A stretch of DNA of 64,000 nucleotides from Nannocystis bainbridge. Its GTDB lineage: Bacteria > Myxococcota_A > Polyangia > Nannocystales > Nannocystaceae. The notes under the pieces are model-generated. The model did not search any database. It saw nothing but the letters and a program-made list of their open reading frames with translations, and had not been told where the DNA came from. The position numbers and the translations under genes are program-made. The stretch spans positions 128,001 to 192,000 of the forward strand of contig NZ_JAQNDL010000004.1 of NCBI RefSeq assembly GCF_028368995.1. Direction: 5' to 3'. Below are positions 4,961-62,484 of the stretch, one piece after another; position 1 is the first letter of the stretch; the number at the start of each line of letters is the position of its first letter.

Positions 4961-5040
4961 TTCGGGACATGTCGTGGAGGACATGTCCTGAGGGCGAGGT
5001 GCTCGAGGACATGTCGCAGCGGACATGTCCTGAGGGACAG
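4961..5040. repeat. GGACATGTCC 14-bp-period tandem array (5 units) between convergent gene ends
   Basis: ggacatgtcgtgga|ggacatgtcctgag|(degenerate)|ggacatgtcgcagc|ggacatgtcctgag|ggacag; ACATGT cores at 4966, 4980, 5008 and 5022, i.e. multiples of 14. Confidence 0.85.
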
Positions 5041-15772: not shown

Positions 15773-15900
15773 GTGTCCTCGCGGACATGTCCGGAGGGGC
15801 ATGTTTGCGGGGGCATGTTCGTTCGGGCATGTCTGTTCGGGCATGTCCGTGCGAGCATGTGAGACCACGCGCCGATCGGCTATGCTCGCGGGCATGTTCG
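15773..15900. repeat. GGCATGT(C/T) tandem array (about 7 units) between pmbA and the acetyltransferase
   Basis: gcggacatgtccggaggggcatgtttgcgggggcatgttcgttcgggcatgtctgttcgggcatgtccgtgcgagcatgtgagacc ... gggcatgttcgtg. Confidence 0.85.
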
Positions 15901-23142: not shown

Positions 23143-23166
23143 CGGGATGTCCCGAAGGACAGGTCA
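23143..23166. repeat. single GGATGTCCcgaaGGACAGGTC repeat unit overlapping the stop of the MGMT-like gene
   Basis: gggatgtcccgaaggacaggtcag. Confidence 0.55.
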
Positions 23167-23484
23167 GCGGCGCCGCGGCGGGCGTGGGCGCCACTGGTAC
23201 TCGCCGAGATCGATGCGGCCGTCGTCCTTGAACTCGACGCCCTCGGCGGTCAAGAGGGCGCGCTGGCGGTCGCCGGCGTGGCCGGGCAGGCTGATCTCGC
23301 CGCGGGCGTTGAGGACCCGCTGCCATGGCACGGGGGCGCCGCCGGGCAAGGCGTGGAGGGCGTAGCCGACCTGGCGAGCGCGCCCGGGCAGGCCGGCGAG
23401 CTCGGCGATCTGGCCGTAGGTGGCGACGCGGCCGCGAGGGACCCGCTGGATGGTGACGTAGATCCGCTCGTAGTCGGGGTGCAT
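23164..23484 (-). CDS. MGMT-family (methylated-DNA-protein-cysteine methyltransferase) DNA-binding domain protein
   Basis: VPRGRVATYGQIAELAG...PWQRVLNARGEIS matches the Ogt/YbaZ-like HTH domain. Confidence 0.75.
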   Translation of the reverse strand: MHPDYERIYVTIQRVPRGRVATYGQIAELAGLPGRARQVGYALHALPGGAPVPWQRVLNARGEISLPGHAGDRQRALLTAEGVEFKDDGRIDLGEYQWRPRPPRRR

Positions 23485-23490
23485 GGCCGA

Positions 23491-25633: not shown

Positions 25634-26020
25634 CTACTCCTTGATGAGCTCTTCGTACTGCTCGGCGGTCAGCAGGCGCTCGAACGCGGCCGCGTCGGTC
25701 GGACGGATCTTGACCATCCAGCCGTCGCCGTAGGGGTCGGTGTTGACGTCCTCGGGGGAGGCGTCGAGCTCGCCGTTGACCTCGACCACCTCGCCGTCGA
25801 GCGGGGCGTACAGCTCGCTGACAGCCTTGACCGAGTCGACCGTGCCGAACTCCTGGCCCGCGGTGAGCTGGGTGCCGCCGGTCGGGAGGGTGACGAGGGT
25901 GACGTCGCCGAGGGTGTTGCTCGCGTGCTCGGTGATGCCGACGACGATGGAGCCGTCATTCTCGAGGCGGGCCCACTCGTGGTCTTTGGTGTAGCGGAGG
26001 TTGCTCGGGATCTTGCTCAT
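25634..26020 (-). CDS. gcvH: glycine cleavage system H protein
   Basis: Lipoyl-lysine context TVDSVKAVSELYAP...; full-length 128 aa. Confidence 0.93.
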   Translation of the reverse strand: MSKIPSNLRYTKDHEWARLENDGSIVVGITEHASNTLGDVTLVTLPTGGTQLTAGQEFGTVDSVKAVSELYAPLDGEVVEVNGELDASPEDVNTDPYGDGWMVKIRPTDAAAFERLLTAEQYEELIKE

Positions 26021-26100
26021 GGTGAATCTCGGGACAGGTTGTCGGAGACAGGTGCTTCGGGACAGGCGCTTCGGGACAGGTTCTCGAGGACAGGCGAGAG
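26021..26100. repeat. TCGGGACAGGnnnn 14-bp tandem array (5 units), the CATG-less variant, in the gcvT-gcvH intergenic space
   Basis: tcgggacaggttg|tcggagacaggtgc|ttcgggacaggcgc|ttcgggacaggttc|tcgaggacaggcga. Confidence 0.85.
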
Positions 26101-26101
26101 A

Positions 26102-27217
<1,116 letters not shown>

Positions 27218-27288
27218 GGTGCTGCCCCGTTCCCATAGCCAACTTCGGCCGCCGCGGGAAGGGCCGCGCCGTGCTACACCCCGGGGCG

Positions 27289-28407
27289 ATGCGCTCCGAG
27301 AGGGAACCCGGAAGCAAACCGCGTCGCGGCGCGGCGCATTTCGCGCCAGTCGCGCTGGCGTCCTGCCTGGCCCTGGTGGCCCCCGCGTGCGCGGCTCGCA
27401 ACAAGGGCGCCGCGCCGACCGGCCATAACTCGTTCGGGCAGGGCACGCGCTACATCCAAAAGGCGGTCCGCAGCAGCAGCGAGGGCGTGATCATCCTGCC
27501 CTCGAAGCGCGCGGAGAACCTGTTCGACCTGGCGCGCCTCAACGAGATCGCCCAGGCCCTGCGGCCGCCCGCCGCGGCGTGCTTCGTCAACCGGGCGATC
27601 GACACGATGAAGCGAGGCAAGCGCGACGGCGAGGACGCGTACGTCGACGTGCCCGAGGGCCAGGTCAAGATCCGCACGCGGCTGTCGCCCGACGGCGAGG
27701 TGCTGCGCACGGAGGTGCTCGACACCGGCTTCAAGGACCCGGAGATCGAGCCGTGCATCATGGAGGCGATCCAGGCCCGCAAGTGGATCAAGAACCGCAG
27801 CGGGGTGGTGCAGTACCTCGACGTGATCTACTGGGTGAGCCTCGGCGACGGCTCGGAGGACAAGTCGCCGGAGGCGAAGGCGGAGCTGCGCCGGCAACAG
27901 GCGATGGTGGCGATCCGCGGCAAGGGCTGCCTCGAGCGCCGCGTCGGCGCCGGGACGTACCCGGTCGAGGGCCTCAACCTGGTCGACCGCGACGGCAATA
28001 CGCTGGTCAGCCGCGTCGAGCCGAGCTCGCTGCCGCAGAAGGTCCAGGACTGCCTGTCGGTGGTGCTGCGCGAGATCCAGATGCCGCGCGCGCCAGGCTC
28101 GTTCGTGCGCCCGATCTCGCCGCAGGTCGAGTACACGGTGGCGACCGACGGCACGGTGTCGTTCGCCGACGAGCGCTGGATTAATTTGATTCTGATGGAA
28201 GAGAAGGCGGCCCGCGAGGACCGCCTGGCAGAGGTCGACCGCGGGCTCGGGATCGCGGAGCCGAAGCCGGAGCCGACGATCGAGACCACCGAGCCGCCGG
28301 CCGGTGAGGAGCCGGCGAGCGAGCCGGAGACGCCGGCGCAGGACCCAGGGCAGGGCGGGATCAAGCTCAAGCTCGGCGGGCACCGGCGCGCTGGTTCGCC
28401 GCGCTGA
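27289..28407 (+). CDS. hypothetical secreted protein
   Basis: Signal [39 protein letters not shown] at 27289 lies 71 bp from the divergent gcvT start. Confidence 0.55.
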
Positions 28408-28432: not shown

Positions 28433-28500
28433 GGGACATGTCGTGGCGGGCATGTCCGATGCGGCATGTTCGAGTGGACATGTTCGATGGGACATGGCCT
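28433..28500. repeat. GGACATGT(C/T) tandem array (5 units) abutting the left inverted-repeat arm
   Basis: gggacatgtcgtggcgggcatgtccgatgcggcatgttcgagtggacatgttcgatgggacatgg. Confidence 0.85.
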
Positions 28501-29714: not shown

Positions 29715-30160
29715 GTGAGGCTCCCCGCGCGGCGACGAGCGGGGCCGGCGACGCTCTCCGCAGGCGGGCTCGGAGCGGCGGAGTGGGACGCAGGCGGGAG
29801 GGGCCGCAGGCGACCGCGCGCAGGCGCCATCGTCCGCCAAACACACCCACCTGTCTCAAGAGACAGAACACCATCGAAGCCCGAGGGCGCCGAGCACGTT
29901 GCCTGGGAGGGCCCCGCCGTGGCGAGGGACCCGCTCCGCTGCTCCGTGCTCGCCGTCACCCAGCTCTCCAGGCCCCGCGCCTTCGGTTGCGCGATTTCCT
30001 GGACAGGCCGTGCTCGCCTCTCCAGGCCCCGCGTCCTCGGTTGCGCGATTTCCTGGACAGGCCGTGCCCGCCGTCACCCCGCGTCCTCGGTTGCGCGATT
30101 TCCTGGACAGGCCGTGCCCGCCGTCACCCAGCTCTCCAGGCCCCGCGTCTTCGGACGCAT
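29715..30160. repeat. right arm of the long inverted repeat; contains 3 tandem 57-bp sub-repeats (gtcctcggttgcgcgatttcctggacaggccgtgcccgccgtcacc)
   Basis: Reverse-complementary to the left arm across about 350 bp, including ...cggagcggcggagtgggacgcaggcgggaggggccgcagg... The arm ends 14 bp before the stop of the flanking gene. Confidence 0.75.
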
Positions 30161-30173
30161 TTATCACAGGCTC

Positions 30174-30770
30174 CTACGCCGTCTCGGCGAGCGCGGGCTC
30201 GAGGTCCACGTCCGTCGTCTCCATGATGCGGGCGAGGGTCATGTAGAGGCCGATGGTCACCAGCAGCTCGAGGACCTCCCGCGCGGTGAACCGCTGGACC
30301 ATGGCGGCGAAGGTGAGATCCGTGGCTCGCACGTCGCGCAGCACCTCGGTGGTGAATCGCAGCACCAGCTGCTCGCTCTCGTCGAAGCATGGGACCTCGA
30401 ATTCGCCGCGCTCGAGCGCTTCGATCTGCTCGCGCGCGACGCCGGCATCGAGGGCGATCTGCACGTGGTGGGCCCACACGTAGCGCGCCGGCGACAGCCG
30501 GGCGACGCGGAGGATCGCCAGCTCGCGCAAGCGGGCGTCGAGCACCTGCTGGACGAGCACCGCGTCGCCGAGGGCGACGAGCGGGCCGAACAGGGTCGGC
30601 GCGTGGGCCACGATGCCGAAGATGTTGAGCCGCCCGGACAGACCCGCGAACACCTGGCGAACGACCTCGGGCGCAGTCTCGGGATCGACGTACGGGAGGC
30701 GGGCCATCTCCCAGCGATATCCATGGCGCGAGTACAGCGTCAAGCCACGGGCTGCGCCAGCGTCCGACAT
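30174..30770 (-). CDS. carboxymuconolactone decarboxylase (AhpD-like) family protein
   Basis: CMD-domain helical bundle with the conserved W-A-H-H-x-x-x-A-x-x-x-G motif (YVWAHHVQIALDAG). Confidence 0.75.
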   Translation of the reverse strand: MSDAGAARGLTLYSRHGYRWEMARLPYVDPETAPEVVRQVFAGLSGRLNIFGIVAHAPTLFGPLVALGDAVLVQQVLDARLRELAILRVARLSPARYVWAHHVQIALDAGVAREQIEALERGEFEVPCFDESEQLVLRFTTEVLRDVRATDLTFAAMVQRFTAREVLELLVTIGLYMTLARIMETTDVDLEPALAETA

Positions 30771-30916
30771 GGACCTTCGATGCGCTGACTGTGTTCCTCT
30801 GGCCGCAGAGGGGTTTTCGCAAGGCGGGCCCGGAGCTCCGGATCACGGCCTGGCCTGAGCCGCGGGCTTTCGCAGGGGCGGCATTTCGCTGCGAGCGTTG
30901 CGGCGCGTGCTGCCCG

Positions 30917-31618
30917 TCAATGGCGCGGCTGCGTCTCGACCTCGCCGACCATCGGCACGAAGCGGACGGGCAGGATCGTCTCGACATGGAGGTCGCCGCG
31001 TGGGCCCTTTTCGAGCACCTTGAGGTCCTGCACGAATTGGCCGACGGGGATCACCAGGCGGCCGCCGGGCGCAAGCTGTTCGGTGAGCGGGCGCGGGAGG
31101 GTCGGGGCGGCGGCGGCGACGATGATGGCGGAGAACGGGCCGGCCTCGGGCCAGCCGCGGTAGCCGTCGCCGGCGCGCACGTGGACGTTGTCGTAGCCGA
31201 GCTCGTCGAGGAGCGCGGAGGCCTGCTCGGCGAGGTCGGTGACGACCTCGATGCTGTAGACCTCGGCGCCGAGCTCGGCGAGCACGGCGGCCTGATAGCC
31301 GGAGCCGGTGCCGACGTCGAGGACGCGGTCGCCGGGCTTGACGTGCGCGAGCTGGGTCATGAGCGCGACGATGTAGGGCTGGCTGATGGTGGCGCCGTGA
31401 CCGATCGGCAGCGGGTGATCGCCGTAGGCCTGACGCTGGTCCTCCTGCGGCACGAAGCGCTCGCGCGGGACCCTGCGCATGGCGGCGAGCACGTGCTCGT
31501 CGGTGATATCGCGGGCGACGAGCTGCTGCTCGACCATCCGGCTGCGGGCGTGTGACGGTTCATCCATGGCGGCAGCGCACGCGACGACCGTGCACAGCAG
31601 GAGGCTCGCTCGACGCAT
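30917..31618 (-). CDS. pcm: protein-L-isoaspartate O-methyltransferase, with N-terminal signal peptide
   Basis: [35 protein letters not shown] signature blocks. Confidence 0.9.
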
Positions 31619-32006
31619 GACGAGAAGGTAGCGCCGTGGTCGAGTCAGGCCCGCGCAGAGCCGGGAGCGCGGCCAGGCTCAGGCGTGGCGGGTCGAGGCA
31701 GCGGCGGTCGGACGGCGGGTCCCCGGGGACATGACGGAGAGGGCAGGCAGGCTCGGCCGTGACCCGCGGCGGGGCGCGCGAGCAGGTGGCTCGGCGTGGG
31801 CAGGCGGGCTCGAGCGCGCGCCCGCGCCATGGGTCTGTGCGGCCCTGAAGCGCGCGTCGGCTTCGCGGCGGGCTCTTCCGCGTGACGGGCCTGCGCAGCC
31901 CTGAAGCGCGTGGCTTCGCAGCGAGACCCTCGAAGCGCTGCGCCACCGCGAAGGGCGGCGACCGGTGGGAGCGCTCCGACGGCGAGGTGGCTCGCCGTGC
32001 TGCCGT

Positions 32007-32070
32007 GTGTCCTCGAGGACATGTCTCCGGGAGCATGTCCTCGAACCCATGTCCCCGGGGACATGCCCCG
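32007..32070. repeat. GGACATGTC tandem array (about 5 units) between pcm and nadE
   Basis: tcgaggacatgtctccgggagcatgtcctcgaacccatgtccccggggacatgccccgggggcc. Confidence 0.85.
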
Positions 32071-32080
32071 GGGGCCAGGC

Positions 32081-34057
32081 TCACTTGCCGCCGACCGCGG
32101 CCTCGAGCTCGGCGAGCTCGTGGGAGAAGCCGCCCGAGAGGATCGGGAAGCGGCACCCCGTCTTCGGGTCGAGGTTCTGGTCGTCGAGGTGGAAGCTCGG
32201 GGCGTAGCGCTCGCGCTTCCACTGGTTCTGGCTCCACAGGCGGAAGAACCGCTTGACCCACAGGAGTAGCTGGGCGCGGCCGTGCTCGGGGTAGCGGCTG
32301 GCGAGGACGCGGAAGACGTCCTTGGGCGTGAGCTTGTCGCGGATGGCGGCGCGCTCGATGACGTCGAGGATCGGGTACGGCATCAGGTCGTCCTCGTCGG
32401 TCTGATGGGCGCTGGCGGGCCGCAGCTCGGCGGTCGGGGCCTGGACGTTGACGGCGCTCAGCTCGGGGGTAGGGCCGACGCCGGCGGGGCCTTCGAGCTC
32501 GACCCACCGCAGCCACTGGCGCAGGAAGGCCTTGTCGATGCCGGCGATCGGCGACAGGCCGCCGCAGGTGTCGCCGTCCATGGTGGCGTAGCCGACGGCG
32601 GCCTCGCTGCGGTTGCTGGTGGCCAGCAGGAGGGCGCCGCGCAGGTTGGCCAGCAGCCACACGCCGGGGGCGCGGGCGCGGGCCTGGATGTTCTGCAGGG
32701 CGATGTCGTCGCCCTTCCAGCCGAGCTCGCGGCCGATCGCGCCCTCGACCGTGCGCACGTAGGCGCGCACGAGCGGGTCGACGTCGAACTCGAGGAACTC
32801 GGCGCCGACGGCCCCGGCGACGGCGCGGGCGGCGTTGCGCGTGGTGTCGGAGCTGTTGTGCGTCGACTGATAGACGCAGGTGAGCAGCGAGCCCACGATC
32901 GCCCGCGTGGTGGTGCAGGTGCCCTCGGCCAGGCCGAGGCGGGCGCAGGTGGCCTCGACGCCGAGCTCCTGCACGGCGAGGGTGACCATGAGGTGCACGA
33001 GGTAGGCGACGGCGGCCGAGTCGGCGCCGCCGCTGAGCGAGACGACGAAGCCGCGCGACCGGCTCTTGCGCAGGTAGTCGAACAGGCCGAGAGCGACGGC
33101 CCGCGAGAACTCCTCGCGCTTGTCGCCGGGCCACGGCGGGGTCGGCAGCGGCTGGTGCGGCGGCAGGTCGGCGACCGGCAGCTGCATCTCGAAGCGGGTG
33201 ATCCGGCGCAGGTGGTCGTCGACGGTCGGGGCGGCGGTCCGGCTGGCGTGGATCATGCGCGCGAGGTCGACGTCGATCACGGCGCTGGTGAGGTAGACGT
33301 CGTCGTAACCGAGCCGCGGGCCCTCGGCGATGAGGTGGCCGGAGGCGGCGATCATGCACTCGCCGTCGTAGATGACGCGGCCGGCCTCGTTGCCGATGAA
33401 GTTGGAGTAGACGTAGGTGGCGCCGAAGCTGCGCGAGGCGCCGATGACGATCTGCTTGCGCACCTCGTGCTTGCCGAACGCGAAGTGGCTGGCGCTCGGG
33501 TTGCAGATGACGTCGACGCCCTGGGCGGCGAGCTCGACGCCGGGGCGGTTCGGGACCCACGCGTCCTCGCAGATCTCGAAGCCGATCCGCAGGCCGCCGA
33601 CCTCGAAGATCTGGTCGCCCAGCGGGTAGCTGTGGCCGTCGTGCTCCCACTGCACGAACTTGCCGGCCGGCCAGCCCTTGAACCACCGCGGCTCGTAATG
33701 GATGCCGTCACCGGCGAGGAAGCGCTTGCCGACCAGGCCGACGATCTGGCCGTCGGCGACCAGGCAGACGGCGTTGTAGTTGGCGGCGCGGTGCATGATC
33801 GGGACGCCGAGGGCGACGATCATGCCCTTCGTCTCGGGCAGCAGCTCTTGCAAGATCCGCCACGATTCGAGCACGGTGCCGCGGCTGAAGAACGCGTCCT
33901 CGCAGCCGTAGCCGGGGATGCAGAGCTCGGGCAGGCACAGCACGGCGACGCCCTGCTGGCGGGCCAGGCGGATCGCCTCGAGGATCCGGGCCTGGTTGCC
34001 GTCCCAGTCGAGCGGCGTCTGGTTGAGGGCGGCGGCGGCGACGCGGACGAGGTGCAT
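32081..34057 (-). CDS. nadE: glutamine-dependent NAD+ synthetase (nitrilase-like domain plus NadE domain)
   Basis: N-terminal CN-hydrolase domain (LCLPELCIPGYGCED, catalytic E/K/C) and C-terminal SGGADS P-loop (VSLSGGADSAAV). Confidence 0.9.
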   Translation of the reverse strand: MHLVRVAAAALNQTPLDWDGNQARILEAIRLARQQGVAVLCLPELCIPGYGCEDAFFSRGTVLESWRILQELLPETKGMIVALGVPIMHRAANYNAVCLVADGQIVGLVGKRFLAGDGIHYEPRWFKGWPAGKFVQWEHDGHSYPLGDQIFEVGGLRIGFEICEDAWVPNRPGVELAAQGVDVICNPSASHFAFGKHEVRKQIVIGASRSFGATYVYSNFIGNEAGRVIYDGECMIAASGHLIAEGPRLGYDDVYLTSAVIDVDLARMIHASRTAAPTVDDHLRRITRFEMQLPVADLPPHQPLPTPPWPGDKREEFSRAVALGLFDYLRKSRSRGFVVSLSGGADSAAVAYLVHLMVTLAVQELGVEATCARLGLAEGTCTTTRAIVGSLLTCVYQSTHNSSDTTRNAARAVAGAVGAEFLEFDVDPLVRAYVRTVEGAIGRELGWKGDDIALQNIQARARAPGVWLLANLRGALLLATSNRSEAAVGYATMDGDTCGGLSPIAGIDKAFLRQWLRWVELEGPAGVGPTPELSAVNVQAPTAELRPASAHQTDEDDLMPYPILDVIERAAIRDKLTPKDVFRVLASRYPEHGRAQLLLWVKRFFRLWSQNQWKRERYAPSFHLDDQNLDPKTGCRFPILSGGFSHELAELEAAVGGK

Positions 34058-34059
34058 TC

Positions 34060-34079
34060 AATGTCTCCGGGGACAGGGT

Positions 34080-34098
<19 letters not shown>
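34060..34098. repeat. GTCTCC/GGACATGTCC repeat pair between prs-like and nadE
   Basis: aatgtctccggggacagggtctaaaggacatgtcctgtg. Confidence 0.75.
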
Positions 34099-35023
<925 letters not shown>

Positions 35024-35027
<4 letters not shown>

Positions 35028-36892
35028 GCGGGGGAGGAAGAGTACCCCTCGGCGAGCGCGTTGGCGACCTCGGTATAGGCGTAATCGCTGACGCGTTCGT
35101 CGATGCGCATGCGCAGCAGCGCCTTGCTGCGGCAGGCGGCGGCGAAGAAGAACGCGCGATCGTCGGCGCAGGCGCGCGCGAGCGCGGGGACGGCGGCCCA
35201 GCGATCGAACAGGCGCTGGCAGATCCGCCGCACGCACGGCCACAGCTCGGCCTGGTCGGGCCCGCCGGCGTCTTCGATCCAGGCGATGACGGCGGCGAGG
35301 TGGGCGTGCACGAGGGTGTGGAGCAGCTTGCCCTGGGCCTCGGCGAGGTCGGCGGTGAGGGTGAAGGAGTCGGAGGCGAGCGCGGGTGCGTGACCGGCGG
35401 CGGCGAGCCGGCCGCGGTGGAGCCGGATGCCGCCGAGGTCGCGCACGATGAAGCCGCAGGGGCGGCCGGCGTGGACGAGCAGGGTGTTCTGCAGGTGGGC
35501 CTCGAGGGCGACGCCGTGGGCGGTCAAGAGGCGCAGGGCCGGCGGGACGAGGACTTCGAGGTAGTCGCTGAAGAAAGCGGCGAGGCGGGCGCGCAGGTCG
35601 CCGGGGTAGTCGGCGGCGAGCTCGCGCACGAGGAGGTCGCCGCCGGGGCGGCGCTCGCCGAGCGCGGCGCAGACGAGGAGCTGCGGGCTGCGCGAGGGGA
35701 CATGTCCGTGAGGGAAGGTCCTCGGGGACATGTCGTCGGGGGCATGTCCGGAGGGGAATGTCTCAAGGGACATGTCGGCGGGGCGGGACGGAGCGAGGCG
35801 CGGGTCGGCTGTCGCGAGGGACAGGTCGGCGTGGAGGTCGCGGGCGAGGGCGGCGGGGTCGGGGCGCAGCACGACGCCGAGCTGGCCGGCGCGGTCGCCG
35901 TGGCGCGGGTGCATGCCGGCGGCGGCCACGTCGGCCTGGATCCGCAGGCCGCGGCGCGTCTCGGGATCGGCGGCCTGGATCGCGGCCAGCAGGGCGGCGA
36001 TCGGCGGGCCGTTGTGGACCGAGGCGGGCGAGACCTGGCGGCGCGCGCTGGTGGTGTGGATGTCGACGGCGAGCTTGAGGTGCAGGGCCGGGGCGGCGAG
36101 GGCGACGGTGCGCAGGCTCAGGAGGGCGCGGGCGGGCAGCGGGGGCAGGTCGACGGGGTGGGCGACGCTGCGCCACAGCGGGCCGAGCAGGCGCGGCAGG
36201 CGGCGCAGCTGGAGGGCGTGCACGGGCAGGCGGACCAGGCCGGCGGGCGCGGGCGGGAACAGCTCGCGGGCGAGGTCGGCGTAGAGGTCGGGCGCGGCGA
36301 GCTGGGCGTGGTCGGCGGCGAGGTCGACGGCGTGCACGGGGGCCTGGGCCAGCAAGTCGGGGCCGTGGCGCAGGTTCTCCCAGGCGCGCAGGCCGAGCCG
36401 GGTCTTGCTCATCGGGTGCCAGGGGTGACCGTCGACGACGAGGTTCTCGGGGTCGAGCGGGGCGGGCCACGCCTGGCCTTCGGAGCATGTCCGATGGCGC
36501 AGGTCGGCGACGAGGCGGGCGAGGGCGAGGTTCCAGCGGCTGTCGTCGAGCTCGCGGGCGAGCCGGGCGCGGGGGGCCGGGGCGAGCGCGGGTAAGAGGC
36601 GCGGGAGGAGCTGGGGGAGGTCGGGCAGGTCGCTGGCTTCGAGGTCGGGGGCGTGGAGCTCAAAGGCGCGGCGGCGTCGCAGCGGGAGACTCAAGGAACA
36701 TGTGCGAAGGGACATGTCCTGAAGGTCAAAGGCGAGGAGCCGCTCGCGGGCGCAGGCGAGGAGCAGGCGGGCGCCGATGGCCTGGGTGGCGGCGCGCCAG
36801 TGACAGGCGAGGTCGGCGGGCTCGGGCCGGACGCGGAAGGCGAGGGGGAGGGCCCGGGCGGCGAAGGCGAAGAAGCGGTCGCGCTCGGGCAC
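35024..36892 (-). CDS. IucA/IucC-family (NRPS-independent siderophore synthetase-like) protein with FhuF-like C-terminal domain; carries in-frame GGACATGTCC repeat insertions
   Basis: [28 protein letters not shown] (S-x-R-T/R ATP loop) and [10 protein letters not shown] (H-x-Q-N) resemble NIS-synthetase motifs. The repeat arrays at 35696-35830 and 36692-36725 lie inside the reading frame (peptides [27 protein letters not shown] and DMSLRTCS). The true start is uncertain. Confidence 0.45.
35696..35830. repeat. GGACATGTC tandem array (about 7 units) lying in-frame inside the IucA/IucC-like CDS
   Basis: gggacatgtccgtgagggaaggtcctcggggacatgtcgtcgggggcatgtccggaggggaatgtctcaagggacatgtcggcgggg...gggacaggtcggc. 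Confidence 0.85.
36692..36725. repeat. GAACATGTG/GGACATGTCC repeat pair within the 5' region of the same ORF
   Basis: aggaacatgtgcgaagggacatgtcctgaaggtc. Confidence 0.7.
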
Positions 36893-37048
36893 GCCGCGAA
36901 AGGTAGCGCGCGGATCGGGAGGGCGAAAGCTCGGGGCTGTAGTGGCGATGAGCTCGCCGACCGTGGAGCTCGCTGAGGGAGCGGGCAGGGTCGACGAGGC
37001 CGACGAGCGTGCGGGCGCCGAAGGCCCCGGTCGGGGACGGCGAGAGGC

Positions 37049-37756
37049 TCAGCCGGCGCGCCAGTGGGCCACGGCGAGCTCGCCGAGCATGAGGGTGGCG
37101 GACAGGAGGAGGACGGCGGCGATCCAGCGGCGCAGGCTGTCGGGGTCGAGGCTGCCGGTGCGGCGGGCGCCGAGGTTGGCGCCGAGCAGGGTGAGCGGGG
37201 TGACGATGGCGAAGGCGGTGAGGTCGACCTGTCCTTGGAGGAAGGTGGCGACGCCGGCCGACAGCCCGGTGACGGCGCCGATCGCCATGTTGGTGCCGAT
37301 GGCCACGGGCGGGGCGACGCGGGCGTAGCGGATCATGGCGGGCAGGCGCAGGCTGCCGAGCAGGAGGCCGACGAGGCCGGAGATCGCGCCGAGCACGGCG
37401 CCGACGACGACCTCGGCGAGGACGGCGAAGGTGCGCGAAGGGACATGTCCGGAAGGACTGGTCGGATCGGGCGGGCGGCGCAGCATGCTGGCGCCGGTGA
37501 GCAGGAGGACGCCGGCGATGACGGCCTTGAGCAGGCGCGCGTCGACGCTGCCGGCCCAGCGAGCGGTGGCGAAGGCGGCGAGGGCGGAGGGGAGGCCGAC
37601 GCTGGCGAGCAGCCACAGGTCGACGCGGCCGTCACGGGCGTGCCGCCAGGTGCCGGTGAGGGTGCCGGCGGTGGAGATGGCGAGGCTGGTGGCGGCGCCG
37701 GCGACCGGGCTGCCGAGGACGTAGACGAGGAGGGCGACCCGCAGCTGGCCGAGCAC
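37049..37756 (-). CDS. TauE/SafE-family sulfite/anion exporter membrane protein; GTG start as tracked, but a hydrophobic helix is encoded in-frame upstream without a canonical start
   Basis: Two 3-4 TM halves separated by a loop that contains an in-frame GGACATGTCC repeat (RRPPDPTSPSGHVPSRTF). Upstream in-frame codons encode EILALALIALVSFGLSYIGATVGLV after a TAG at about 37846. Confidence 0.65.
   Translation of the reverse strand: MLGQLRVALLVYVLGSPVAGAATSLAISTAGTLTGTWRHARDGRVDLWLLASVGLPSALAAFATARWAGSVDARLLKAVIAGVLLLTGASMLRRPPDPTSPSGHVPSRTFAVLAEVVVGAVLGAISGLVGLLLGSLRLPAMIRYARVAPPVAIGTNMAIGAVTGLSAGVATFLQGQVDLTAFAIVTPLTLLGANLGARRTGSLDPDSLRRWIAAVLLLSATLMLGELAVAHWRAG
37436..37465. repeat. GGACATGTCC repeat unit pair in-frame inside the TauE central loop
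   Basis: gcgaagggacatgtccggaaggactggtcg. Confidence 0.8.
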
Positions 37757-38430
37757 GAGCCCGACGGTGGCGCCGATGTAGCTGAGGCCGAAGGAGACCA
37801 GCGCAATGAGCGCTAGCGCGAGGATCTCGGTGGAGCGCAGGCGCCGACGCTAACACGCGTGACGGGGGAGTGAGCCTGGAGGGATCGCCGCGCGGTGGCG
37901 CGAGGGCGCGCGGTCGCGGAGGACCACGAGAGAGGTGGTGCGGGGGCGATGCGTGAGGGGGCCGCTGCGAGGGCTCGGTGATGCTCTCGCGCGGTGCTGT
38001 CTCGCGGATGCGGCGGCGATCGCAGGGGACGAGTCGACGGCGATGGCCGGGCAGTTCGAGGCAAAGTGGGTGGCACACGCGGCGCGGCGATGTTGGCGAG
38101 GGCCTCGCTGTCGCGGTGTCGATGGCCGCGTCGCGGATGTGGCGGGGATGGTGCTGGTGGCGGTCCGGCGAGTCGTGGCGATGCTGCCCTGCGTGTCGGA
38201 TGGTTTGCGAGGCGCGAGCGATCGCTTCGTCGGGCCTCGGGCGTGCGGGCTGTCGGAGGGCCGCGAGGATCGGCGGTGTGAACGTGAAGGTTCGTTCATC
38301 ACGGTGCGCTGGGTCGGACGGTGATGGTCGGCTCGAGTCGGCGAAGGTGTCGCGGGCGAAGGTGTCGCGGGCGAAAGGCGGGGCGGCGCTTGACAGGCGG
38401 GCGGGCCGGGGCGGACGCTGCGGCGGCGTG

Positions 38431-39216
38431 ATGGAGCGCGGGGACACGACGGCGGCGGAGGCGCTCGCAACGGGGCTTCCGGGGTCGCCGCGGCCGCGCT
38501 GGGTGGTGATTCACTGGACGCTCGAGGCGCTGGGGCTGGTGCGCGCGATCGCGGCGGCCGACGGCTCGCCGGAGCTGACGCTGATCGGGCCGGCGGCCGC
38601 GGACGAGGTCGCGGGGGCGCTGGCCGAATTGCCCGAAGGACATGTCCACAAGTACTGGCAGGGCTCGGCGAGCGGCGGGGTCGAGGCGCTGGCGCGCTTC
38701 TTCGCCGAGACGGCCGGGCTGCCGGCGGCCGACGCGATCATCGTGCTGCCGCTGCGCGGGCACGGCGAGACCGACGCGTTCTCGCGCCTGGTGTGCACGG
38801 CGATCCAGCGGGCCTGCAAGGGCAAGCCGCCGCACGTGGTGGTGGCGGTCGAGGACCCGGAGGCGACCCACGAGTTCGAGGGGCTCGGGGTGGCGACGAT
38901 CTTCTATCCGGGCTTCCTGCGCGCGGCGCTGCTGGCCCACGCGTGCGTCGATCTGGGGGCGTTCCGCTTCATGCTGGCGCTGCTCGGCGGGCGCCTGCGG
39001 GTCGAGACCTGGCCGGTGCCGCCGGAGCTGCGGGCGGGGACGTTCCGCGAGGCGTGCCTCGGGGTGGAGGTCGATCGCCGCGGGCGGCCGGTGACGCTGA
39101 TCGGGCTGTTCGCGCCGGCCGAGGGCGGGCAGGACTCGATGCTGCTGAGCCCGCCGCCGGGCCGTGCGCTGCGCGACGCGAGCGCGCTGCTGGTGCTGAC
39201 GGGAGAGGCCGAGTGA
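38431..39216 (+). CDS. stand-alone RCK (TrkA-N/TrkA-C-like) regulatory protein
   Basis: Rossmann-like alternation (RWVVIHWTLEALGLVRAIAA...DAIIVLPLRG...HVVVAVEDPEA) followed by a small beta domain. Sits immediately upstream of the channel gene. Weak SD. Confidence 0.4.
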   Translation: MERGDTTAAEALATGLPGSPRPRWVVIHWTLEALGLVRAIAAADGSPELTLIGPAAADEVAGALAELPEGHVHKYWQGSASGGVEALARFFAETAGLPAADAIIVLPLRGHGETDAFSRLVCTAIQRACKGKPPHVVVAVEDPEATHEFEGLGVATIFYPGFLRAALLAHACVDLGAFRFMLALLGGRLRVETWPVPPELRAGTFREACLGVEVDRRGRPVTLIGLFAPAEGGQDSMLLSPPPGRALRDASALLVLTGEAE

Positions 39217-39330
39217 GGCGAGGGGCGCGTGCGGCCCGCGCGGGGGGCACGATCGGCAGCGCTGCCGGCGAGGCGGAGCGGGTCTTCGGCGAGGCGGCCG
39301 CTGTGACGCGGCTCGCAGGAGGATCTGGCT

Positions 39331-39400
39331 TTTGGGGCATGTCCGTGCGGACATGGCTGATCGGGCCTGTACTCCTGGGCATGTTCCTGCAGACAGGTGC
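39331..39400. repeat. GGGCATGTCC-type repeat units overlapping the start codon and signal peptide of the channel gene
   Basis: ggggcATGtccgtgcggacatggctgatcgggcctgtactcctgggcatgttcctgcagacaggtgcc. The ATG of the CDS is the CATG of a repeat core. Confidence 0.6.
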
Positions 39401-41663
39401 CGCGCGGGCCGGCGAGCCGATCACGATCCGGTTCGGGTCGGGGGCCAAGAAGGGCGGGTTCGACGTGACCGCCCACGCGCTGGCCGAGGTGGTGCGCGGC
39501 GAGGGGCGAGTGACGATCGCGCCGGAGTCGACGCGGGGCTCGTGCGAGAACGTGCACAAGCTGCTGTCGGGCGAGCTCGACGCGGCGCTGGTGCAGTACG
39601 ACGTGGCGGCCGAGGCGTTCAAGGCCGGGCAGGCCGACGCGGCGGCGGTCGACAGCAAGACGCCGCGCGGCGGGTGGATGTGCAAGCTGTCGCCCGAGGA
39701 GGCCGACAAGGCGGAGCTGCGGGTGATCGCGGCGGTGTCCGACGCGGCGGTGCACGTGCTGGTGCGCCGGCCGGTGCGCCTCGACGAGTTCACCGACATC
39801 GGCCGCGAGCCGCTGTTCATGGGCAAGGACGGGTCGGGCAGCTACGAGACGGCGAAGGTGATCCTCGGCGCGGCCGGGCACACGGCGGAGCATCTGCCGC
39901 TGTTCATGGGCACCGCCGACGAGGCGCTGGCGGCGATGAGCCGGCGCGAGCTGCTGACGATGCTGCGGACCACCGAGCCCGGGCACGCGGAGATCGGCGC
40001 GGTGCTGGCGTCGGGCCTGGCGACCCTGAACCCGCTGCCGGAGGAGGTGCTGAACCGGCTGATCGACGGCTATCCGTATTACCGGATCTGCCCGATCGAG
40101 CCCGGGACCTACGCGGGGCTCGAGTTCAGCATCCCGACGGTGTGCGTGAGCTCGGTGGTGCTGGTGGCGACGCCGCGCCAGCGGCTGGACGACGAGGGCT
40201 TTTTGGCCGACCGCCGGCTCGCGGTCGAGGCGATGATCGTCGGGCTGCAGAAGCTGGCGCGCGAGGAGCAGCACGCGAGCCTCGGGGTCCGCGTCGAGTG
40301 GCGCGGGTTCGCCGAGCGCGAGCCGATCCCGCTGCACCCGGTGGCGGAGGTGCACGAGACCCGCGAGCGGCGGACGGCGTGGCTGCAGGCAGGGGCGGCC
40401 GCGGCGGCGCTGGCGGTGGTGCTGCACCTGGTGCGCCGGGCGCTGCGGCGGCGGCGGGTCCCGGGGGCCGGGATCGAGACCCAGCTGTCGAACCCGCTGG
40501 TGCCGTTCGCGGCGTTCGCGTGCGTGGTGACGCTCTCGACGTTCATCGTCTGGTCTTTGGAACATGACTCGAACGCCAGGTTGCGGACGCTGAACGACTC
40601 GTTCTGGGAGATGAACACGTTCGCCACCGGCAACTTCACCACCGAGACGCTGAAGACGCCGACGGCGCGGGTGGTCGGGGCGGCGGCGACGATCCTCGGG
40701 CTGGGGCTGCTGGCGTGGTTCACGGCGACGCTCACCAACATCTTCGCGCAGGAGCAGACGCGGCTGTGGCGGCGGCTGAACCGGCACCTGGTGGTGCTGA
40801 ACTTCCGCGAGGACATGCTGCCGCTGATCCGGCTGCTGCGCAGCCCGGGGCCGACGCGCCACCGGCCGCTGCACGTGGTGGTGTCCGACGCGCTGCCGCG
40901 GCGCGTGCGGCTGCAGCTGGCGCGGGTCAAGGCGCTGACGATCCACAACGCCAACCCCGAGGTGCCGGAGGACCTGGCGGGGCTGCGGCTGCCGCGGGCG
41001 TCGCGGGTGATCGTGCTCGGCGACGGCGAGGCGGCGGGGGCCAGCTACGATCCGCTGCGGATCGCCCGCGCGGTCCATCAGGCGTGCGCGCGCGACCCGA
41101 TCGGCGGCGGGCAACGGGCGCGGCCGCTCGGGGTGGCGGCGACTTCGGTCGAGATCGCCCGGACCGCGCCGGCGCTGCCGGTGACGCTGGTCGAGACGTC
41201 GGAGGGCGAGCGCGACGAGGTGTTCTCGCCGTTCGCGGCCTGGCTGGTGCCGGTCGACTGCCAGACGCTGGCGCACCGCTGGCTGGTGATGGCCTGCCGC
41301 GACCGCGCGTTCGCGGAGCTGTTCAACCGGGTGGTCGCGTTCGCCGACGACAACGCCGAGGTCTACACGGCGACGGCTCCGACCTGGCTCATCGGACAGC
41401 CGTGGCGATCGGTCCGCCGCGCGCTGCTCGAGGTCCAGGGGCGCGGGGGCGCGGTGCCCCTGGGGCTGTATCGCACCGCCGATCCGGGCGGCAAGACGCC
41501 GGTGGGCGGGACCTCGCACGCGGAGCTGCGGCGGCGGCTGATCGTCAATCCGCGGCCGGACGAGCCGGTGGCGCCGGGCGACCTGATCGTCGCGCTGTGC
41601 GAGGATGAGGCGGACCTGGTGCGCATCGTCGCCGAGAGCCGCAAGGCCGTGCCGATCGGCTGA
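39339..41663 (+). CDS. TAXI-type solute-binding domain fused to a 2-TM ion-channel pore and tandem RCK domains
   Basis: Signal MSVRTWLIGPVLLGMFLQTGAARA. TAXI-like blocks (ITIRFGSGAKKGGFDVTAHALAEVV...SCENVHKLLSGELDAALVQYDVAAEA...FMGKDGSGSYETAKVILGAAG), then TM1, pore helix plus filter FWEMNTFATGNFTTE, then TM2, then two RCK-like domains (HLVVLNFRED..., RVIVLGDGEAAG...). Confidence 0.6.
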   Translation: MSVRTWLIGPVLLGMFLQTGAARAGEPITIRFGSGAKKGGFDVTAHALAEVVRGEGRVTIAPESTRGSCENVHKLLSGELDAALVQYDVAAEAFKAGQADAAAVDSKTPRGGWMCKLSPEEADKAELRVIAAVSDAAVHVLVRRPVRLDEFTDIGREPLFMGKDGSGSYETAKVILGAAGHTAEHLPLFMGTADEALAAMSRRELLTMLRTTEPGHAEIGAVLASGLATLNPLPEEVLNRLIDGYPYYRICPIEPGTYAGLEFSIPTVCVSSVVLVATPRQRLDDEGFLADRRLAVEAMIVGLQKLAREEQHASLGVRVEWRGFAEREPIPLHPVAEVHETRERRTAWLQAGAAAAALAVVLHLVRRALRRRRVPGAGIETQLSNPLVPFAAFACVVTLSTFIVWSLEHDSNARLRTLNDSFWEMNTFATGNFTTETLKTPTARVVGAAATILGLGLLAWFTATLTNIFAQEQTRLWRRLNRHLVVLNFREDMLPLIRLLRSPGPTRHRPLHVVVSDALPRRVRLQLARVKALTIHNANPEVPEDLAGLRLPRASRVIVLGDGEAAGASYDPLRIARAVHQACARDPIGGGQRARPLGVAATSVEIARTAPALPVTLVETSEGERDEVFSPFAAWLVPVDCQTLAHRWLVMACRDRAFAELFNRVVAFADDNAEVYTATAPTWLIGQPWRSVRRALLEVQGRGGAVPLGLYRTADPGGKTPVGGTSHAELRRRLIVNPRPDEPVAPGDLIVALCEDEADLVRIVAESRKAVPIG

Positions 41664-50622: not shown

Positions 50623-51810
<1,188 letters not shown>

Positions 51811-51814
51811 GCCG

Positions 51815-52459
51815 ATGACGGAGGACGCGAAGCGACGGGCGGCCCGGGCGGCGCTGGCGTACGTGACGCCGGGGGCCGTGATCGGCGTGGGCACCGGCTC
51901 GACCGTGGCCCAATTCATCGCCGAGTTAGGGCCGTCGCAGGTCGCCGGCGCGGTCGCCAGTTCGGAGCAGACCGCGGCGCGCCTGCGGGCCCGCGGGATC
52001 GCGGTGCTCGACCTCAACGAGACCGGGCCGCTGCCGCTCTACGTCGACGGCGCCGACGCCTGCGACCCGCAGCGGCGCCTGGTCAAGGGCGGCGGGGCGG
52101 CGCTGACGCGCGAGAAGATCGTCGCGGCGGCCAGCGAGCGGTTCGTCTGCATCATCGACCCCGGCAAGCGGGTCGACCGGCTCGGCGGGGCGCCGCTGCC
52201 GATCGAGGTGGTGCCGATGGCGCGCGAGCTGGTGGCGCGCACGATCGCCAGCATGACCGGGGGCACGCCCGTGTGGCGCGCGGGCGTGACCACCGACAAC
52301 GGCGGGTGGATCCTCGACGTCCACGGGCTGGCGATCGGCGAGCCCGAGGCGCTCGAGGCGGCGCTCGACCAGATCGCCGGGGTCGTCAGCGTCGGGCTGT
52401 TCGCCCGCCGGCCGGCCGACGTGGTCATCGTCGGCGACGACCCGCCGTGGTCGTGGTGA
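51815..52459 (+). CDS. rpiA: ribose-5-phosphate isomerase A
   Basis: GVGTGSTV phosphate loop and [16 protein letters not shown] catalytic blocks. Confidence 0.9.
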
Positions 52460-55751: not shown

Positions 55752-55808
55752 AGGGACATGTCCCCCGGGACCTGCCCTCAAGGGCATGGCTCCGGGGACA
55801 TGTCCGAT
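55752..55808. repeat. GGGACATGTCCCCCGGGAC / GGGGACATGTCC array overlapping the 3' end of the methyltransferase CDS
   Basis: agggacatgtcccccgggacctgccctcaagggcatggctccggggacatgtccgat. Confidence 0.85.
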
Positions 55809-62349: not shown

Positions 62350-62468
62350 GGCTTCGAGGATATGTCCCGAGGGACAGGTCATCGCAGGTCGATTGGCTTC
62401 AAGGTCATGCCCTGAGAGACATGTCCGTGCGGCGCGAATCGCGTAATGACATGTCTTGAGGGACATGT
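62350..62468. repeat. GATATGTCC/GGGACAGGTCA/GAGACATGTCC/TGACATGTCT/GGGACATGTCC array (about 6 units) between the SDR and the propeller lipoprotein genes
   Basis: gatatgtcccgagggacaggtcatcgcaggtcgattggcttcaaggtcatgccctgagagacatgtccgtgcggcgcgaatcgcgtaatgacatgtcttgagggacatgtccttcag. Confidence 0.85.
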
Positions 62469-62484
62469 CCTTCAGGGCTAGCCG

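Follow-up and report, generated by a model that had tools for sequence, protein, structure and literature searches.

Two groups of described systems come closest to the locus analysed here. The first are the NIS synthetases (NRPS-independent siderophore synthetases), represented by AsbB (petrobactin), IucA/IucC (aerobactin), AcsD, DesD and FslA/LbtA (rhizoferrin), the last being an example of the stand-alone, single-enzyme NIS systems that exist. The second are the NrtR-controlled operons of NAD metabolism, which include prs-nadV and pncB-nadD-nrtR-nadE arrangements, and the NrtR regulons contain prs paralogues that serve NAD salvage specifically (Rodionov et al. 2008, PMC2330246). In a 64,000-nt stretch of the Nannocystis bainbridge genome (contig NZ_JAQNDL010000004.1, positions 128,001 to 192,000; hereafter the window), members of both groups stand side by side. 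Three co-oriented genes on the minus strand encode successively a synthetase with IucA/IucC and FhuF domains (the ligase, gene IucA), a Prs-family protein and a two-domain NadE. The stop codon TGA of IucA and the start codon ATG of prs overlap as ATGA, and 22 nt separate the prs stop codon from the nadE ATG, exactly as claimed in an earlier annotation made from the DNA alone (the sequence-only reading).

That annotation proposed that the three enzymes jointly build or modify a ribosylated or nicotinate-containing small molecule. The explanation favoured here, with moderate confidence, is a lineage-specific mosaic operon whose parts share no pathway: an NIS-type ligase gene joined to a fragment of a widespread NAD salvage operon. 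The features of the locus are collected in Table 1.

Table 1. Coordinates of the enzymes, the neighbouring transporter and the repeat elements in the window
Feature	Position	Strand	Description
Glutamine-dependent NAD+ synthetase NadE	32081..34057	-	658 aa; N-terminal nitrilase-type glutaminase and C-terminal PP-loop synthetase domain
Prs-family ribose-phosphate diphosphokinase, "NAD-operon" subfamily	34080..35027	-	315 aa; assigned by Pfam, TIGR01251, motifs and orthologue context
NIS-type (IucA/IucC and FhuF-like) synthetase	35024..36892	-	622 aa, GTG start; assigned by Pfam, AF2, Foldseek and motifs
TauE/SafE-family (TSUP) membrane transporter	37049..37849	-	PF01925, E=2.8e-33; co-oriented, upstream of IucA
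Repeat-derived double hairpin after the nadE stop	31990..32080	-	-48.7 kcal/mol, z=-2.8; units at 32017 and 32059
Prs-nadE junction with three repeat units	34058..34100	-	last Prs codons (GHVL), TAG stop, 22-nt spacer, GGAG 8 nt before the nadE ATG
Six-unit in-frame array of GGACATGTCC cores	35698..35781	-	84 bp, 28 codons, aa 371-399, IucA_IucC/FhuF inter-domain linker
Three degenerate units of the same repeat	36685..36727	-	42 bp, 14 codons, aa 56-70
Repeat examples	4965-5030, 15783-15848, 28434-28499, 32017-32068, 55754-55805, 62358-62470		

Identification of the three enzymes

The family assignments of the sequence-only reading have been borne out for all three genes by Pfam, TIGRFAM, fold and motif analysis. 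In the ligase both profiles that had been named as a check of this gene, PF04183 (IucA_IucC, E=8.4e-34) and PF06276 (FhuF, E=1.1e-29), match far above their gathering scores. A profile of 22 homologues searched against PDB finds AsbB (4.5e-25), AcsD, SbnC, IucC, IucA and DesD. The AlphaFold2 (AF2) model of the ligase (pLDDT 89.4, pTM 0.90) retrieves with Foldseek AsbB, DfoC, IucC, NcdF, IucA, DesD, AlcC, AcsD and SbnC (E=1e-19 to 4e-23), and it superposes over its full length on the solved NIS synthetases with TM scores of 0.62-0.77 at an identity of only 14-18%; for AsbB, IucC, IucA, DesD and AcsD the TM scores are 0.68-0.77. Model and Foldseek matches together bear out a full-length, three-domain NIS fold. 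Four motifs, GHPWHPM, (H)TTSARR, LEAHLQN and (V)RDLGG, show no or almost no variation across 22 to ~50 homologues, and they align with the nucleotide-, Mg- and carboxylate-binding motifs (GHPxHP, TS..R, E.H.QN, RD.GG) of AsbB and of the actinomycete and Bacillus NIS genes.

The ligase shares 83-84% identity with proteins of Nannocystis punicea, N. exedens and N. pusilla. The family is confined to the Nannocystaceae, and its next relatives, at 25-33% identity, are NIS genes of Bacillaceae and actinomycetes. None of the curated equivalogs fits, the best NCBIfam match (FslA) lying far below its cut-off. Judged by domains, motifs and predicted fold, the ligase is an NIS-type enzyme, intact though very divergent. 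It shares both domains, the fold and the binding motifs with the characterised synthetases named above; the differences relate to its low identity to them, its probable co-transcription with NAD genes, and the lack of tailoring, export and uptake genes in the window. That siderophore tailoring genes are missing had already been recorded in the sequence-only reading.

The Prs protein consists of the domains Pribosyltran_N, Pribosyl_synth and Pribosyltran (PF13793, PF14572, PF00156). With 170.8 bits against TIGR01251 (cut-off 113) it belongs to the family; the scores against the NCBIfam equivalog models all lie far below the cut-offs (best 151.7 vs 296), and the identity to the E. coli and human Prs is ~28-30%. 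FPDGE, DLH and KRR with the catalytic lysine are kept. Two otherwise conserved motifs are changed: STMER stands in place of ARQDR, and DDMIRTGGS in place of DDMIDTGGT, so that a loop aspartate is replaced by arginine. Both changes are invariant across the subfamily, the first as (A/S)TMER, and relatives at 55-70% identity number in the thousands. On sequence grounds the protein is a member of a distinct, widespread Prs subfamily.

A further likeness concerns Adps of the phage system NARP1, a Prs-like ADP-ribose pyrophosphokinase paired with Namat, which is also a Prs-family protein of non-canonical sequence in an NAD context. The Prs of the locus is only 24-29% identical to the phage Prs-like proteins, no closer than to the E. 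coli Prs, and phage Adps keeps ARQDR where the subfamily has STMER. An identification with Adps/NARP1 has been rejected, the phage homologues being <30% identical and placed on a separate branch of the tree, with no Namat neighbour at the locus. NAPRTase-family searches and the annotation of neighbours revealed no Nampt/Namat-like gene in the window. NARP3 is made up of PnuC and NadR and is irrelevant here. The subfamily may, like phage Adps, act on ADP-ribose instead of making phosphoribosyl pyrophosphate (PRPP), and nicotinic acid adenine dinucleotide (NaAD) would then be possible without NadD.

The third enzyme possesses CN_hydrolase (PF00795, E=8.5e-23) and NAD_synthase (PF02540, E=6.4e-30) domains, scores 85.9 against TIGR00552 (cut-off 63.65), and carries the motifs EICED (residue 161) and SGGADS (the P-loop, residue 342). 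Its identity to the NadE proteins of Planctomycetota and Polyangia is 61-65%, and by these features it is of the ordinary glutamine-dependent type.

The NAD salvage operon as the home of this Prs

Look-ups of three Prs relatives revealed the arrangements pncB-prs-nrtR ... pncA (locus L083), pncB-prs (L086) and prs-nadE (L084). The scan of metagenome contigs gave 80 Prs loci (orthologues of 55-82% identity), in 43 of which NAD genes adjoin prs. The gene directly upstream of prs is pncB in 25 of the 61 metagenome loci with enough flanking sequence, and the gene directly downstream is nadE in 27 of 64. L138 (4466-10217), L100, L127, L133, L148 and L161 contain the complete operon pncB-prs-nadE-nrtR(-pncA). 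Stand-alone Prs loci have unrelated genes as neighbours, once a PNP/UDP phosphorylase. Upstream of pncB, 12 of 18 loci carry a palindromic operator of NrtR type, TAGTGTA-N5-TACACTA, which fits the GT-N7-AC core for NrtR (Rodionov et al. 2008).

Since the Prs subfamily usually sits in the salvage operon pncB-prs-nadE-nrtR(-pncA), the prs-nadE pair is, as far as gene content and order can tell, an NAD module and a fragment of this widespread NrtR-controlled operon. The two arrangements are alike in the Prs subfamily and in the adjacent, co-oriented prs and nadE. In contrast to the NrtR-controlled operons, the locus is devoid of pncB, nrtR, pncA and the operator, and the NIS synthetase occupies the position of pncB. 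Neither PncB nor NrtR homologues were found within the 64-kb window, the pncB and nrtR genes are missing from the related IucA loci as well, and the 3' end of IucA has no similarity that would mark a pncB remnant. The NrtR operator (<=2 mismatches) is absent from the window and from every Nannocystaceae IucA locus; the operator model was derived from pncB loci, and this absence says nothing on the membership of IucA in the NAD regulon. The well-delimited Prs subfamily, with its altered active-site motifs and its tie to pncB-prs-nadE-nrtR operons, remains useful in itself.

The sequence-only reading pointed to the ATGA coupling. The same overlap is regularly seen where prs follows pncB, and it is the normal junction of this prs with any upstream gene, pncB included. 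The replacement of pncB in its position with an identical junction, along with the absence of pncB and nrtR homologues from the window, could be read as a non-orthologous displacement, in which an NAD-related step belonging to the pncB position would have passed to the IucA-like enzyme, e.g. the activation of nicotinate, or of a different pyridine carboxylate, with ATP. Such a displacement is very improbable: it has no mechanistic precedent, the enzyme has the fold and motifs of ordinary NIS synthetases, it is older than the fusion (it occurs without Prs in clade B, described below), and pncB may lie elsewhere in the 11-13 Mb genome.

As a separate observation, the pncB-prs-nadE-nrtR(-pncA) operon itself contains no nadD. 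This gene was not found in the flanks of the complete operons L131, L133 and L138 either, a result which is uninformative taken alone.

Distribution and history of the IucA-prs linkage

Neighbouring genes were called by tblastn with a fixed query set and by Pfam scans of selected open reading frames (ORFs), and the trees were built by neighbour-joining on sequences derived from high-scoring segment pairs. Among the species-representative genomes of Nannocystaceae, IucA-Prs-NadE is present in 15 loci, IucA-Prs without NadE in 5, and IucA alone in ~16 (including Enhygromyxa and Plesiocystis); the IucA identity across the Prs-linked loci is 44-84%. Six more metagenome loci have the arrangement, which brings the triad or the pair to 26 Nannocystaceae loci in total. 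The neighbourhood, whose conservation in related genomes had been named by the sequence-only reading as a test, is thus conserved, and beyond chance. Outside the family, none of ~40 NIS loci (Bacillaceae, Actinomycetes) has Prs or NadE nearby.

The IucA tree comprises four clades: (A) IucA-Prs-NadE; (B) a large clade of IucA alone, with Enhygromyxa and Plesiocystis; (C) IucA-Prs, behind which lie convergent ADYC/STAND-kinase genes; (D) the clade of Nannocystis, in which TauE lies upstream. In the Prs tree the IucA-linked Prs sequences cluster as a single clade within the NAD-operon subfamily, and for this reason a single origin of the IucA-Prs link followed by vertical descent is indicated. 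The catalytic motifs of clade B, TTSARR included, are identical to those of the Prs-linked clades. In L084 (5629-9933; GCA_030429545.1), prs-nadE lies behind the divergent gene x239, the gene that precedes IucA in clade A; the 660-bp non-coding gap contains neither IucA nor a remnant of it, and the Prs nests among the IucA-linked sequences. The ligase gene seems to have been lost cleanly from L084. In L011 a PAS-STAS gene on the opposite strand lies between IucA and prs, and outside Nannocystis proper, in the deeper clades, the IucA-prs gap amounts to 60-430 bp. On this comparative evidence the linkage is dispensable. In another locus, L007:9893-12822 (N. pusilla Na p29), a frameshift around codon 180 seems to divide prs in two and the match to nadE does not begin before residue 69, which reflects either an assembly error or pseudogenisation.

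These data bear on the proposal of one pathway for the three enzymes, in which, for example, the ligase would join a carboxylate to a PRPP-derived or pyridine nucleotide intermediate. Such cooperation would amount to NIS chemistry of a new kind. It could account for the tight coupling in Nannocystis (ATGA overlap, 22-nt gap), for the 26 loci with IucA-prs as the most stable adjacency, and for the location of IucA in the exact slot of the PRPP-consuming pncB; the extra arginine in TTSARR is compatible with an anionic substrate. The proposal is nevertheless unlikely. The association arose only once in evolution, the enzyme itself, its motifs unchanged, is present in a sister clade without adjacent Prs or NadE, and the link was lost in L084 and interrupted in L011. 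NadE and Prs are of housekeeping type, 55-65% identical across phyla, and the pair is a fragment of an NAD operon. No NIS synthetase is known to act on nucleotide or PRPP-derived substrates. The adenylate or pyrophosphoryl chemistry common to the three enzymes, which the sequence-only reading pointed out, is a generic resemblance in the use of ATP and does not speak for a pathway. We find no positive support for a real metabolic link between IucA, Prs and NadE, and the joint product proposed earlier is left unsupported.

The mosaic explanation would run as follows. The prs-nadE pair would be a trimmed copy of the widespread operon pncB-prs-nadE-nrtR-pncA, in which Prs, to judge from its family membership, would supply PRPP to nicotinate phosphoribosyltransferase, and NadE, in keeping with the established function of its family, amidates NaAD to NAD. 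In the ancestor of some of the Nannocystaceae, the gene of a stand-alone NIS synthetase would have landed in the position of pncB, and the locus would have lost the NrtR gene and its operator. The gap between IucA and prs would then have shrunk to the ATGA overlap in Nannocystis proper. The NIS enzyme would most likely adenylate a (poly)carboxylate such as citrate and condense it with an amine, possibly a polyamine, and its product would be a small metallophore of the carboxylate type, made independently of Prs and NadE. If this explanation is true, it advises caution: tight operon coupling together with a common ATP chemistry does not amount to a pathway.

Several observations weigh against it. 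IucA-prs is the sole adjacency retained through at least three flanking architectures and down to 44% IucA identity, which exceeds the expectation for a purely neutral juxtaposition, and clade C keeps the pair though nadE is gone. Two motifs that are otherwise conserved differ between this Prs and canonical Prs, and PRPP formation by this protein is predicted only. On the side of the ligase, an identity of 14-18% to characterised NIS synthetases does not allow its substrates to be assigned from these. Siderophore tailoring, export and uptake genes are absent beside IucA in the Prs-linked clades as in the window, and the same loci have no Fur-like box upstream of IucA. Because neither such genes nor a Fur-like box accompany IucA, the siderophore role is inferred from the family and from the sister clade only. 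It is quite improbable that the retained pairing reflects real chemistry, with the ligase using the product of the unusual Prs subfamily or a pyridine carboxylate; this would yield a new ribosylated or nicotinate-derived metabolite, or a new PncB-replacing NAD route in the Nannocystaceae.

Possible product of the ligase and expression of the operon

The only positive hint of function comes from the context of clade B. In half of this clade, IucA is convergent with a minus-strand operon that encodes a TonB-dependent receptor, PepSY_TM, a spermidine-synthase-like protein and one or more unassigned proteins. Fur-like boxes, with 4-5 mismatches to the E. coli consensus, lie ~100 bp upstream of the receptor gene (L033:16901, L037:12798, L038:16967). 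By analogy, this context points to an iron-related, perhaps polyamine-containing, carboxylate chelator as the product. The clade-B operon (e.g. L030:9659-14607) also holds unassigned proteins of ~400 aa and 345 aa, and it ends at the 3' end of IucA.

A siderophore of Nannocystis, nannochelin, is already known; it is a citrate-hydroxamate with an aerobactin-like structure. Nannochelin would need a fuller cluster, and the locus is not the obvious aerobactin-like one. A very divergent, Nannocystaceae-specific NIS synthetase is a reasonable target for metallophore or siderophore discovery in a group rich in natural products.

In Nannocystis proper the three genes are probably co-transcribed, with prs translationally coupled to IucA. 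The scan for sigma-70 promoters and intrinsic terminators gave nothing usable in DNA of 72% G+C, with no canonical T-tract terminator, and no known RNA or riboswitch was found in 30000-39000 at E<=1. Co-transcription might itself have been selected: the ligase would make a metallophore, and iron acquisition would be co-expressed with the last, PRPP- and ATP-dependent steps of NAD synthesis, possibly because de novo NAD synthesis relies on the Fe-S enzyme NadA. The persistence of the IucA-prs adjacency through several rearrangements would fit such regulatory coupling, as would the iron-uptake context of the sister clade and the loss of NrtR and its operator, which leaves the NAD genes in need of another promoter. 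We regard it as doubtful, the idea being wholly inferential: neither a Fur-like box nor another shared motif lies upstream of IucA, the scan called no promoter-like site, and the gaps of 60-430 bp in the deeper clades leave room for separate promoters. The mosaic operon remains the preferred explanation.

A dispersed 14-bp palindromic repeat

In-frame insertion of palindromic repeats into genes is known from Rickettsia palindromic elements and elements of the REP/BIME type. The sequence-only reading had noted two in-frame repeat arrays in the ligase gene. The arrays are real, but they are not a property of the enzyme and belong to a dispersed genomic repeat. The sequence GGACATGTCC (<=1 mismatch) occurs in 41 copies in the window, compared to 1.8 expected. 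It forms the palindromic core of 14-bp tandem units, which are mostly intergenic and located at gene ends. Repeat pairs are often 14 bp apart, two adjacent units giving a 10-bp hairpin, and 42-bp periods are seen. Copies inside ORFs have been identified in TauE (37441), in the NMT1_3 protein described below (38638 and 39335) and at the C-terminus of Prs (34085). The core encodes DMS in one frame and GHV in another.

The array lengths are multiples of 42 bp, which is why the repeats are tolerated in frame. The six-unit array falls within the sole disordered stretch of the ligase model (residues 366-399), and this larger array is predicted to form a disordered surface loop. Homologues either lack the insert or have it at another length, with variation between Nannocystis species too. 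The RNA of the insert folds strongly (hairpins, z=-4.8). The three-unit array corresponds in the AF2 model to a region of beta strands with pLDDT >90, and it is common to the closest Nannocystis homologues. The RNA structure of the prs-nadE junction is unexceptional (z=-0.35). The double hairpin past nadE is the probable 3' end of the transcription unit.

The repeat resembles the Rickettsia palindromic and REP/BIME elements in being a short dispersed palindrome, mostly intergenic, that also occurs in frame as a disordered or surface insert. In contrast to these elements, the Nannocystis unit is only 14 bp long and tandem, and its in-frame copies come in multiples of three units. A repeat of this kind that is tolerated within coding sequences remains useful under the mosaic explanation. 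In distant IucA homologues (P0032, P0033, P0041, P0047 and P0053; alignment columns 560-640), a different insertion is located ~40 residues further on. With its DMS/DLS motifs (e.g. HVPEDMSPRACPP), it suggests that members of the same repeat family were inserted in frame independently, at a second position of the inter-domain linker.

Flanking genes

Adjacency of TauE and IucA is restricted to the Nannocystis clade. The genes lie almost next to each other in the window, N. exedens and N. radixulma, and are ~2.3 kb apart in N. punicea (L005:5625-8000) and N. pusilla (L007:5613-8000), where the interval is without a convincing ORF or Pfam match. At the other end of the operon, a protein-isoaspartate methyltransferase (PCMT) and a CMD-family protein are encoded 400 bp past nadE. 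The wider window, with a G+C content of ~72%, is of housekeeping character, in line with the mosaic explanation: GcvT (26102-27490), GcvH (25634-26101), MGMT (23164-23490), PCMT and RpiA. Ribose-5-phosphate isomerase A (RpiA), which makes the substrate of Prs, is encoded at 51743-52459 (+), 17 kb from the operon, a distance probably too great to be meaningful. Divergent from TauE lies a large ORF of up to 1089 aa (38394-41663, +), in which the family match is confined to residues 362-651 and corresponds to NMT1_3, a solute-binding fold of the TAXI type. This ORF is conserved beside TauE-IucA across the whole Nannocystis clade.

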